Shown here: positions 23,414 through 61,941 of the stretch, in pieces
Numbering within the stretch: position 1 is the stretch's first letter
How the letters are laid out: every line of letters starts with the position of its first letter
Source: Chiloscyllium plagiosum
Taxonomy: Eukaryota
Length of the DNA: 64,000 nucleotides
NCBI RefSeq assembly: GCF_004010195.1
Contig: NC_057753.1
Coordinates: 13,443,979-13,507,978 of the forward strand
Direction: 5' to 3'
Made by a program: the position numbers and the translations under genes
Notes under the pieces: generated by a model
The model's input: the letters and a program-made list of their open reading frames with translations, nothing else
Databases searched by the model: none
What the model was told of the DNA's origin: nothing

Positions 23414-23452
23414 TGTTATTGTACGAGGCTCAGCCTGGTTCCTGTCACTGTG
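23414..23452 (-). other. 23-RSS of V-C2
   Basis: CACAGTG-23nt-ACAATAACA on minus strand. Confidence 0.9.
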
Positions 23453-23967
23453 TGTCTCAGTCCACAGGAATATACTGCGCTGTCAGACACCTGCAGCTCA
23501 TAGATGGTGAAATTCCCCTCATTTTGTGACTTGTCCAAAGATGCAGAAAATCGATCGGACACCCCCTCTCCTCTGATGATATTGCCATAGTTGTCAACGT
23601 AGATTAAGAATGTTGGACATTCCCCTGTGTCCTGACGGTACAGTTGCAAAGTATATGTGTTATCTGTGGTCGAATATCTGAAATGAATGGTTACTGAATC
23701 TCTTTCAAATTGTATCGTTGAAACTGGCTTCTGTGAGATCGAATCGGCACAATTAACACCTGTTCAAATATAGAAAGAAAGTGACATTAAAATGACGATC
23801 ACTATGAATGTTAACGAGTCAACGCCTATACTGTAATAGAGGGAAACACAGATAAATCGAAGATTGCTATATACATTTTAACAGGAAGGGAATACTTTAC
23901 AACTCAGAAACTTGCCTGTTAAGAGCGTTGCAGTAGTGAGAAATGAGTAAATAGTAAGAGTCGACAT
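23453..23967 (-). CDS. TCR V segment family C copy 2 (leader 23967-23916, V exon 23759-23453); open frame but no Cys23 or Trp41
   Basis: MSTLTIYSFLTTATLLT, GC-AG phase-1 intron, GVNCA-DSISQKP..VTIHFRY..LQLYRQ..DSAVYSCGLR. Confidence 0.85.
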
Positions 23968-24133: not shown

Positions 24134-24141
24134 TGACGTCA
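24134..24141. promoter_or_regulatory. CRE (TGACGTCA) in V-C promoter; paralog 60827-60834, mutated at ~42365
   Basis: Palindromic CRE ~170 bp upstream of the leader ATG with a nearby CCAAT; CRE motifs are established in TCR V promoters. Confidence 0.7.
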
Positions 24142-54279: not shown

Positions 54280-54925
54280 CGGTTAAAAGTCACACAACTC
54301 CAAGTTATCGACCAATAGGTTCATTTGTAAGCACTGGTTTCCTGAGTGCTGTCCCTCATTAGTTGCTTGTGGAGTATAAGTTCATAAAACACAGAATATA
54401 TAGCAAAACTTTACAGTGTGATGGAACTGAAATTATGCGCTGACTAAAAGATCTGGATTGCTTGTTAATTCTCTCATCTTTTAGAATGAAAATGTTGGTT
54501 TCAGTTCTGTCGTATGTAAATCGCAGAATTTGTTTCGACTTACATTCTCAAGCGAACTTTAACAATTGGTGTCATGTCGGCCCAGAAAATGCCGGCATGA
54601 CACCATTGGTAAAGTTCACTTGAGAATACAATTTTAAAAATAAATCTCCGATTTACACATGAAAGAACTGAAACTAAATGTTCATTCTAAAATCAAACTT
54701 AACAAACAATCCAGATCTTCTTTCAACAGATAATTTCAATTAAATCAAACTATAGACTTTTGTAATAAATTCTGTGTCTTCCGATCTTATACTGCACAAC
54801 CACCTGATGAAGAAGCAGAGCTCCAACAGTCAGTGCTTCCAAATAAACCTGTTGGACTATAACTTGTTGCAGTGTGATTTTTAACTTTGTACACCCCAGT
54901 CCTACAACGGCATCTCCAAATCGGT
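54280..54925. mobile_element. Fold-back (inverted dimer) of a Penelope-like terminal repeat with decayed hammerhead cores
   Basis: Arms ~54282-54580 and ~54591-54885 are imperfect reverse complements; CAC-CTGATGA..GTG at 54801-54835; absent at paralogous site ~33578. Confidence 0.7.
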
Positions 54926-60108: not shown

Positions 60109-60147
60109 TGTTTTTGTACGAGGCCCAGCCTGGTTCCTGTCACCGTG
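60109..60147 (-). other. 23-RSS of V-C4
   Basis: CACGGTG-23nt-ACAAAAACA. Confidence 0.9.
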
Positions 60148-60662
60148 TCTCTCAGTCCGCAGTAATATACTGCGCTGTCAGACAGCTGCAGCTCATTGAT
60201 GGTGAAATTCCCTTCATTTTTCGACTTGTCCAAAGATGCAGAAAATCGATCGGACACGCCCACTCCTCTCCTGATACTGCCATACTTGGGAACGTAGATT
60301 AGGAATATTGGAGATTTCCCTGGGTCCTGACGGTACAGTTGTAACGTATGAGCGTTAGCTGTGCTCGAATAGGTGAAATGAATAGTCACTGAATCTCTTT
60401 CAAATTGTATTACTGTAACCGGCTTCTGTGAGATCGAGTCGGCACAATTTACACCTGTGCAAATATAGAAAGAAAGTGACATTAAAATGACGATCATGAT
60501 GAATGTTAGCAAGTCAAAACATTTACTGCAATCGAGGGAAACACAGACAAATCAAAGATTGTGATAGACATTTTACCTAGAAGAGAATATTTTACAACTT
60601 AGAAACTTACCTGTTAAAAGCGTTGCAGCAGTGAGAAATGAGCAAATAGGAAGAGTCAACAT
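60148..60662 (-). CDS. TCR V segment family C copy 4 (leader 60662-60611, V exon 60454-60148); open frame but no Cys23 or Trp41
   Basis: MLTLPICSFLTAATLLT, GT-AG intron, DSISQKP..VTIHFTY..LQLYRQDPG..DSAVYYCGLR. Confidence 0.88.
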
Positions 60663-61941
60663 GTTTACAGAGCAGATGCAGGGTTAGAACAAAGAATATT
60701 GAAGCTAATTCTTTTGAGTTGGCAGTCAATGTGTGTCATATCCGGTCTCGCTGCCGAATGGTTCAGTTCTGCCAGAGTCATCATATAGCACCCAATCGGC
60801 GAACAGCCACTTTGTTCTCCAGTCCATGACGTCAAAGTGTTGACCACATGAACTCCACTGGGAAATACGGGTGGCCGTTTGCCCCGTCCAAACTGCTCCA
60901 CTAGTGAATAATACGGTGGTTGATCCATATCCTTTCCAAATTCTGGCACACTACTCAAATCACATCTGTCCTTTTGATCCACCAATCTATCAATATCGGC
61001 CCAAATTATACTCCATAACAGGGCAAGAACTACTTGCTGATCACTGAATAAAGCTGATGGAAGCACTAACTTCAATTCTCCTCTTTAACAAAGTCAGTCC
61101 TGTACACTAATGGTTAATATTTAATGCTGATTGAATCTAAGAGCAGGAAGGTTCTACTGCAATTGCATAAGGTGTTGGTGAGGCCACACCCGAAGGATTG
61201 TGCGCAGTTCTGGTATCCTTACTTGTGGGAGAATTTTCTGGCTTTGGAGACAGTGAAGAGGCGGTTCGCCAGATTGATTGCAGGTATGAGGGGGGTTACC
61301 CTTTGAGGAGACGTTGAACTGCCTGAGACTGTACTCGATAGAATTTCGAAGAATGCGAAGCGATCTGGTTGAAACATATAACATTATGAAAGGGATGCAT
61401 AAGATAGATGGAGGCAAGTTTTTCCGCTGGCGGTTGAGACGAGAACTAAATGACATTGCATCAAGAATAGGGGGAGTGGATTTGGGATATTCTCTGCTTT
61501 TCCCAGAGAATATTGGAATTCCCTGCCAAAGGAAGCGATGGAGGCAGCTTCAATAAATTTATTCAAGATATATTTGATTGAGTTTTTGCATGTTCGGGAA
61601 AATAAGGGTTATAGGGATAATGCAGATTGGAGGAGCTCAGGCAATGGTAGATCTTGATGGATTGTGTTCGACGGGGCAAATGGCCCTCTCCTGCTTCTAT
61701 TACAATGTGGCTTCGGTGCCACGTAACAAGAGCTGTTTATTCATTATCATCAACTGGCAAAGCCATATAAGAGTTTTCTTTAACGTGGAAAAGTGCACGA
61801 ACTGCTAAAAGGGGTATTTTGGGAGGACTGACCGTTGTCGTTTCGTTTTCAATATCTTACCAGTTTACAATCCAGCGACATATCAGAAATGTGGCTTAGG
61901 ATGTAGGTAGGGAATGGAGCATAATGAGTGTGTGTGTGGTG

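Follow-up and report, generated by a model that had tools for sequence, protein, structure and literature searches.

A shark TCR V family that probably folds without the Cys23-Cys104 disulfide: a counterpart of nurse shark TRAV10 with a proposed repacked core

Introduction

Under IMGT-style rules, V genes that lack Cys23 or Trp41 are classed as ORFs of doubtful folding (PMC8559430, in the passages available). The window studied here is the whole 64-kb stretch of DNA that was analyzed (G000:C44:13443979-13507978, Chiloscyllium plagiosum), and it contains three V segments with neither of these residues. Do such segments encode a working V domain that manages without its disulfide and its tryptophan, or are they the remains of a pseudogene that was amplified together with its neighbors? 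A first, sequence-only reading of this DNA had raised both possibilities and had suggested that the two losses might compensate each other.

The locus

The window is part of a V array that exceeds 2 Mb. The V family described below shows the split leader, V-set exon and 3' 23-RSS of TCR alpha/delta V genes and is found in cis with a J cluster and a constant exon on a single contig (G000:C44). In the 200 kb scanned downstream, 123 J-like segments are located on one strand between 14.55 and 14.69 Mb. A C1-set exon at 14,569,270 divides them into 10 J-like segments before and 113 after it, a layout that suggests an alpha locus with a nested delta unit. A motif scan for a C-alpha exon over the same 200 kb (21.7 kb of which is N) gave no result.

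The window holds four V families, in both orientations, inside blocks that are duplicated at ~80% identity. C2 and C4, two of the three copies described below, each have a canonical V of family A ~2 kb upstream. Self-comparison also showed a self-inverted stretch of ~600 bp with 75% identity (window 54282-54885).

Three copies in the window

The three copies (C2, C3 and C4) are all located on the minus strand and carry TTC (Phe) at IMGT position 23, CTG (Leu) at position 41, and Cys104. The IMGT register was set by aligning the family to 10 V segments of canonical type from this locus, and the alignment puts the Phe precisely in the column of Cys23 and the Leu in that of Trp41. The earlier reading of these positions is confirmed.

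C4 is an intact copy (60109..60662, minus strand). It consists of a leader (60662-60611), a GT-AG intron (60610-60455), a V exon (60454-60148) with Phe23 at 60377-60375 and Leu41 at 60338-60336, and a CAC-type 23-RSS (60147-60109). The CRE-like element TGACGTCA is found upstream (60827..60834, minus strand). In all likelihood, C4 is a live copy of the family.

C2 (23967-23414, minus strand throughout; L005 in the genome copy list) starts with an ATG at 23967 and a leader exon of 17 codons plus 1 nt (23916..23967). The predicted GC-AG leader intron of 156 nt (23760..23915) begins with a non-canonical GC splice donor (23915-23914). The V exon (23453..23759) has an open frame and matches the Pfam V-set with 42 bits; the C2 and C4 proteins both score above the cut-off of this family. 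The exon contains Phe23 (23682-23680), Leu41 (23643-23641), an extra FR2 Cys that is private to C2 (23619-23617), the stretch Gly87-Asn88-Phe89-Thr90, and Cys104 (23466-23464) with Ser103 just before it. It is followed by a 23-RSS (23414..23452) composed of CACAGTG, a 23-nt spacer and the nonamer ACAATAACA. A CRE-like TGACGTCA is present at 24134..24141; in C2 as in C4, this element precedes the V exon by ~380 bp. Leader, open frame, CRE and CAC-type 23-RSS were thus all found in C2 and C4, as the sequence-only reading had reported, and so was the extra cysteine of C2. What it had missed are the blemishes of C2: next to the private FR2 Cys, this copy has the GC donor, a Tyr103 to Ser substitution and the weaker nonamer ACAATAACA. 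The GC donor (AG/GCAAG) is common to C2, L003 and L004, whereas the other two members of the C2/C4 clade have GT. C2 is probably usable, yet it is the most blemished of the intact copies.

C3 (41661..42201, minus strand; L077) has retained Phe23 and Leu41 but is dead: it carries a frameshifting 11-nt deletion in CDR2, a CGCAGTG heptamer and a broken CRE. This damage, too, had been missed by the sequence-only reading. The differences between C2 and C4 had been said to cluster in the CDRs. By hand count, 20 of 101 residues differ, 7 of 14 in CDR1 and CDR2 and 13 of 87 elsewhere, so that the changes are overrepresented in the CDRs without being restricted to these.

The family in the genome

Three genome searches yielded at least 11 intact copies, in which the V exon is open and followed by a CAC 23-RSS (genome copy counts are lower bounds). 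The leaders of these 11 copies were identified by script in nine cases and by reading the sequence in two. Leu41 and Cys104 are present in 11/11 and Phe23 in 10/11; the remaining copy, L012, has Cys23. A further 17 broken or partial family loci were examined as well. Trp41 occurs in 0 of the 16 that are readable there, and position 23 is occupied by Phe (10), Cys (2), Tyr (1), Val (1) or a stop (1). Of the residues that canonically define a functional V under IMGT, the family retains Cys104 and a hydrophobic residue at 89 (Phe rather than Leu), but departs from the rule at Cys23 and Trp41. Apart from Cys104, the mature domain has no conserved Cys, and the one in FR2 is found only in C2. The family forms a single clade (support 100/99), and the other V families of the locus share 20-39% identity with C4.

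The exceptional copy L012 (G000:C44:12767996-12768301) is intact and transcribed, combines Cys23 with Leu41 and has a CDR1 of 8 residues. Two near-identical broken copies with Cys23, Leu41 and an RSS (L086, G000:C45:13.59 Mb; L083, G000:C90161) lie outside the TCR alpha/delta contig and are orphons or assembly duplicates. Two other broken copies (L015 and L026, G000:C44:12.35 and 12.90 Mb) have an FR3 like that of nurse shark V10.1. Position 23 reads TAC in one of them and TAA in the other, and the Tyr23 lineage that is live in nurse shark appears to be dead in this genome.

Selection

For the frameworks of the 11 intact copies, a pS of 0.44 and a pN of 0.16 were obtained, corresponding to an omega of 0.28 (codon-bootstrap 95%: 0.19-0.41), compared to 0.61 for CDR1+2; these pairwise counts are non-independent and cover intact copies only. 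The five-member C2/C4 clade gave 0.34 for framework and 1.10 for CDR. In a codon model with free omega versus omega=1, 2dlnL amounted to ~71 for the frameworks and ~2 for the CDRs (best of five kappa values). A framework value near 1, which the sequence-only reading had named as a refutation of its proposal, was not observed. The codons for Leu41 vary (CTG, TTG, CTA) with zero replacements, and Leu itself is therefore under retention.

Transcripts and V-J joints

Family members were searched in the contig sets X1, X2, X3 and X8, which are presumed to be RNA. X1-X3 carry two other organism codes, while X8 has the same species label as the best-matching sets. Spliced leader-V joints were found in X1, X3 and X8. 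A 448-nt contig of X3 comprises the 5' UTR, the spliced leader, the whole V exon and an in-frame J; compared to L011, its codons 23 and 41 are free of listed differences. The contig reads as a spliced leader-V(F23, L41)-J in frame. A spliced X8 contig is identical to L011 across Phe23, and X8 also includes an L012-type contig. Among the contigs aligned to C4, none has a base change that would give Cys23 or Trp41, and their A>C differences are all accounted for at other places. In the transcribed L011, no CRE is present within 420 bp of the V exon, and the element is therefore not needed for expression of the family.

All five readable V-J joints among those listed are in frame, and they use five different J (one of the joints is a two-contig consensus with an agreement of 0.87). 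Four correspond to J segments that are located downstream of the delta-like C exon, at 14.629, 14.637, 14.652 and 14.657 Mb; for one X3 joint, the J motif was not recovered in the scanned J cluster. Family members are thus spliced, and their V segments undergo in-frame joining to the large J cluster of the locus. Judging from diagnostic bases, the V partners are probably of the C2/C4 clade (two joints) and of the L006, L007 and L011 types, and none of the contigs in the examined sets can be traced to C2 or C4 itself. In-frame joints are also enriched by nonsense-mediated decay. In addition, the joining of shark TRA is guided by microhomology (PMC10322711, accessible passages), because of which such joints weigh less than one-in-three odds would suggest. 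The in-frame ratio proposed earlier as a test came out as expected, but is weaker than had been assumed.

At L006:1495-1501, the splice acceptor apparently lies one codon upstream with the frame kept, and an L006-type V-J contig occurs in X8. Contigs of X3 that run through the unrearranged RSS at window position 60109 and at L011:1481 represent germline V transcripts or DNA carry-over. In the raw single-cell run X9, 0 matching reads were found in the 2% that was sampled, which is too little for a test. Run X11 gave 0 matching contigs, which is no proof of absence.

These results bear on the second explanation of the sequence-only reading, an old pseudogene that was passively amplified with the V cassette and whose transcripts are by-products. 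The window is indeed a mosaic of segmental duplications, and broken copies are at least as many as intact ones. However, a pseudogene is at odds with a framework omega of 0.28 reached over a pS of 0.44, with 11 copies that keep their open frames, leaders and RSS, and with the expression of the orthologues in nurse shark (PMC5931798, parts available). Overall, selection, spliced transcripts, in-frame joints and the TRAV10 cDNAs refute the pseudogene, to which hardly any credence is left, and support the functional, disulfide-free TCR V family that had been proposed alongside it.

A functional family could still serve a specialized, possibly semi-invariant T-cell lineage, or its free Cys104 could engage in an alternative bond or act as a redox switch. 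Cys104 is kept in 11/11 intact copies though it has no partner, and the first two joints were both on a J with the QLIFG motif. The restricted J usage suggested by these two joints was dropped as three more used other J, the five joints listed having five different J, and 27 unique CDR3-J are listed among the 45 clones of nurse shark V10 (PMC5931798, rows available). An alternative bond lacks a second conserved Cys in the mature domain, and the region of the Cys104 codon takes part in microhomology-guided joining, which may keep Cys104 in place (PMC10322711, in the passages available). A specialized lineage or a role for Cys104 is regarded as quite improbable. Because many J segments are used, the chain reads as an ordinary diversified V-alpha; it would pair with TCR-beta and act as such.

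Proposed core repacking

Next to Leu41, three more positions set the family apart. The 11 intact copies all have Phe89 (4/328 canonical domains), Gly87 (22/318) and an Asn88-x-Thr/Ser sequon (3/327), and the three changes sit on the E strand. Leu41 and Phe89 hold even in the Cys23 paralogue L012. Canonical V domains have a conserved hydrophobic residue at position 89, and it packs close to Trp41. Because of this location, Trp41Leu and Leu89Phe are the likeliest compensating swap as judged from the sequences. Phe89 would fill the cavity left by Trp41Leu, the packing contacts being predicted. Phe23 may pack in the place of the disulfide, with Gly87 making room for it, and Cys104 would become a buried free thiol. 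A glycan at Asn88 may add stability.

The volume of the seven-position core is compatible with this arrangement: the Phe23 copies have 1022-1048 cubic angstroms, within the canonical range (canonical domains: 1082 +/- 43). The core of L012 amounts to 967, which is below the canonical 5th percentile (1005). A structure prediction had been suggested as a check, and AlphaFold2 predicts a V-set fold with a pLDDT of 89.9 and a TM of ~0.8 to solved V domains. This model is without the J-encoded G strand, and its input alignment included canonical V domains.

The sequence-only reading had looked for compensation elsewhere. It is conceivable that the family is functional and that the pair Cys23Phe/Trp41Leu compensates alone. 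Positions 23 and 41 are established neighbors in the V core, and Phe or Tyr23 with Leu41 is the commonest combination (10/11 intact copies and 43/45 nurse shark clones). Against this, Cys23 and Leu41 occur together in the intact and transcribed L012, Tyr23 and Trp41 in 17 of 383 retrieved V domains (383 being those readable in all three columns), and Phe89 tracks Leu41 in 11/11 copies. The pair alone is thus an unlikely answer. The proposed pairing is thus borne out only in part: the tightest partner of Leu41 is Phe89, while the loss of Cys23 is looser.

The preferred reading is that the family is a functional counterpart of TRAV10 under purifying selection, whose V domain likely folds without the B-F disulfide through a repacked core. 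We hold this with good, though not complete, confidence.

Order of events

The trees nest L012 inside the family, and a basal Cys23 lineage is compatible with the data (p-AU values of 0.18 and 0.31). The nurse shark V10.2 clones, in the rows available, have a CDR1 like that of L012 and TTT at position 23, one base from the TGT of L012. On sequence grounds, the tree position and this TTT favor a regain of Cys23, and L012 may thus have recovered both the cysteine and the disulfide. A wider scenario can be put forward tentatively, with somewhat less than even confidence: a carpet-shark V family has long been without the disulfide and the Trp pin, its core has been rebuilt with the Trp41Leu/Leu89Phe swap, Gly87, Phe or Tyr23 and an Asn88 glycan, and L012 possibly returned to Cys23. 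If true, the family would be an undescribed natural series of an Ig domain losing, then regaining the canonical core.

Novelty and significance

The sequences of the family and their expression are already in print as nurse shark TRAV10, and the loss of Cys23 in teleost TRAV has been published as well. For the double loss of Cys23 and Trp41 and for the 41/89 swap, no statement was found in the shark and fish TCR V literature covered, outside of which lie two key nurse shark papers. The searched passages of PMC5931798 say nothing about the absence of Cys or Trp ('tryptophan' gave 0 matches), and those of PMC12227049 and PMC7677710 contain nothing on the family. The family motif is also absent from the supplementary files searched (11/19) of Giorgetti (PMC10322711).

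Because of the IMGT-style ORF rule, a selected and expressed family like this one would be filtered out or mislabeled in shark repertoire work. Disulfide-independent V domains are relevant to the engineering of intracellular binders, and the family offers a natural template for them. The paralogue set with Phe23, Tyr23 and Cys23, all with Leu41/Phe89, is ready for tests of epistasis in the Ig core. How TCRs work is unchanged by the family.

Comparison with known V domains

The nurse shark alpha-V10 numbering reportedly goes back to Criscitiello et al. 2010. The TRAV10 (alpha-V10) sequences compared here are those of Ott et al. 2018 (Table 1 source data/supplement 3, PMC5931798, as far as accessible). 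TRAV10 is represented there by 45 of 447 clones with 27 unique CDR3-J; as they were amplified with a V10 leader primer and a C-alpha primer, this count is no usage frequency. The clones are expressed V-J-C-alpha cDNAs, and those analyzed for mutation are stated to be in frame. In the available rows, codons 23/41 read TAC/CTA in 43/45 clones and TTT/TTC in 2/45, and Gly87-Asn88-Phe89-Thr90 is present in 45/45. The earlier proposal included the check whether expressed orthologues keep Cys and Trp; none of these 45 cDNAs has either. The two families are alike in being without Cys23 and Trp41, in keeping Cys104, and in sharing the LQLYRQ and GNFT motifs. V10.1 and L011 are identical at 61/96 residues (~64%, hand count), which is below the within-species family threshold of the authors (70% nt, 75% aa), as expected across genera. 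From the shared diagnostic residues and this identity, the Chiloscyllium family is taken to match nurse shark TRAV10. Nurse shark is reported to have two subfamilies, with Tyr23 in V10.1, whereas the 11 intact copies of Chiloscyllium mostly have Phe23 and in one case Cys23.

Two predicted proteins of Chiloscyllium punctatum, with F23/L41 and F23/V41, belong to the family as well; they reach 162 and 134 bits, compared to 83 for the domain ranked after them. No member was found among the bony fish or tetrapod matches of the alignment-based searches. A single-sequence homologue search gave no match where the alignment-based searches succeeded. Among the 383 retrieved V domains, both Cys23 and Trp41 are absent only in four family members and in one visibly decayed domain, and chance is therefore excluded. 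A chimaera V with Cys23 and Leu41 had first appeared as sister (87/83), but this link was driven by the trait and was gone once columns 23 and 41 were removed.

In salmonid TRAV1, Cys23 is replaced by Tyr and the gene is productively used; TRAV1-1 joins 72/118 J segments, and no further structural peculiarity is reported (PMC8559430, in the passages available). TRAV1 thus resembles the shark family in having an aromatic residue at the first Cys and in being rearranged with many J. However, teleost TRAV1 keeps Trp41, which the shark family is without. The same is seen in the 17 retrieved Tyr23 domains, which retain Trp41 and Leu/Met89, and those with source names are teleost. In the trees, the shark family is separate from two named teleost Tyr23 domains, with a joint clade still compatible with the data (p-AU of 0.17). 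Another natural V domain without one of the conserved Cys is the VH of antibody ABPC48 (PMC5734687, accessible part). ABPC48 is a single antibody, whereas the shark family is an old germline family of many copies.
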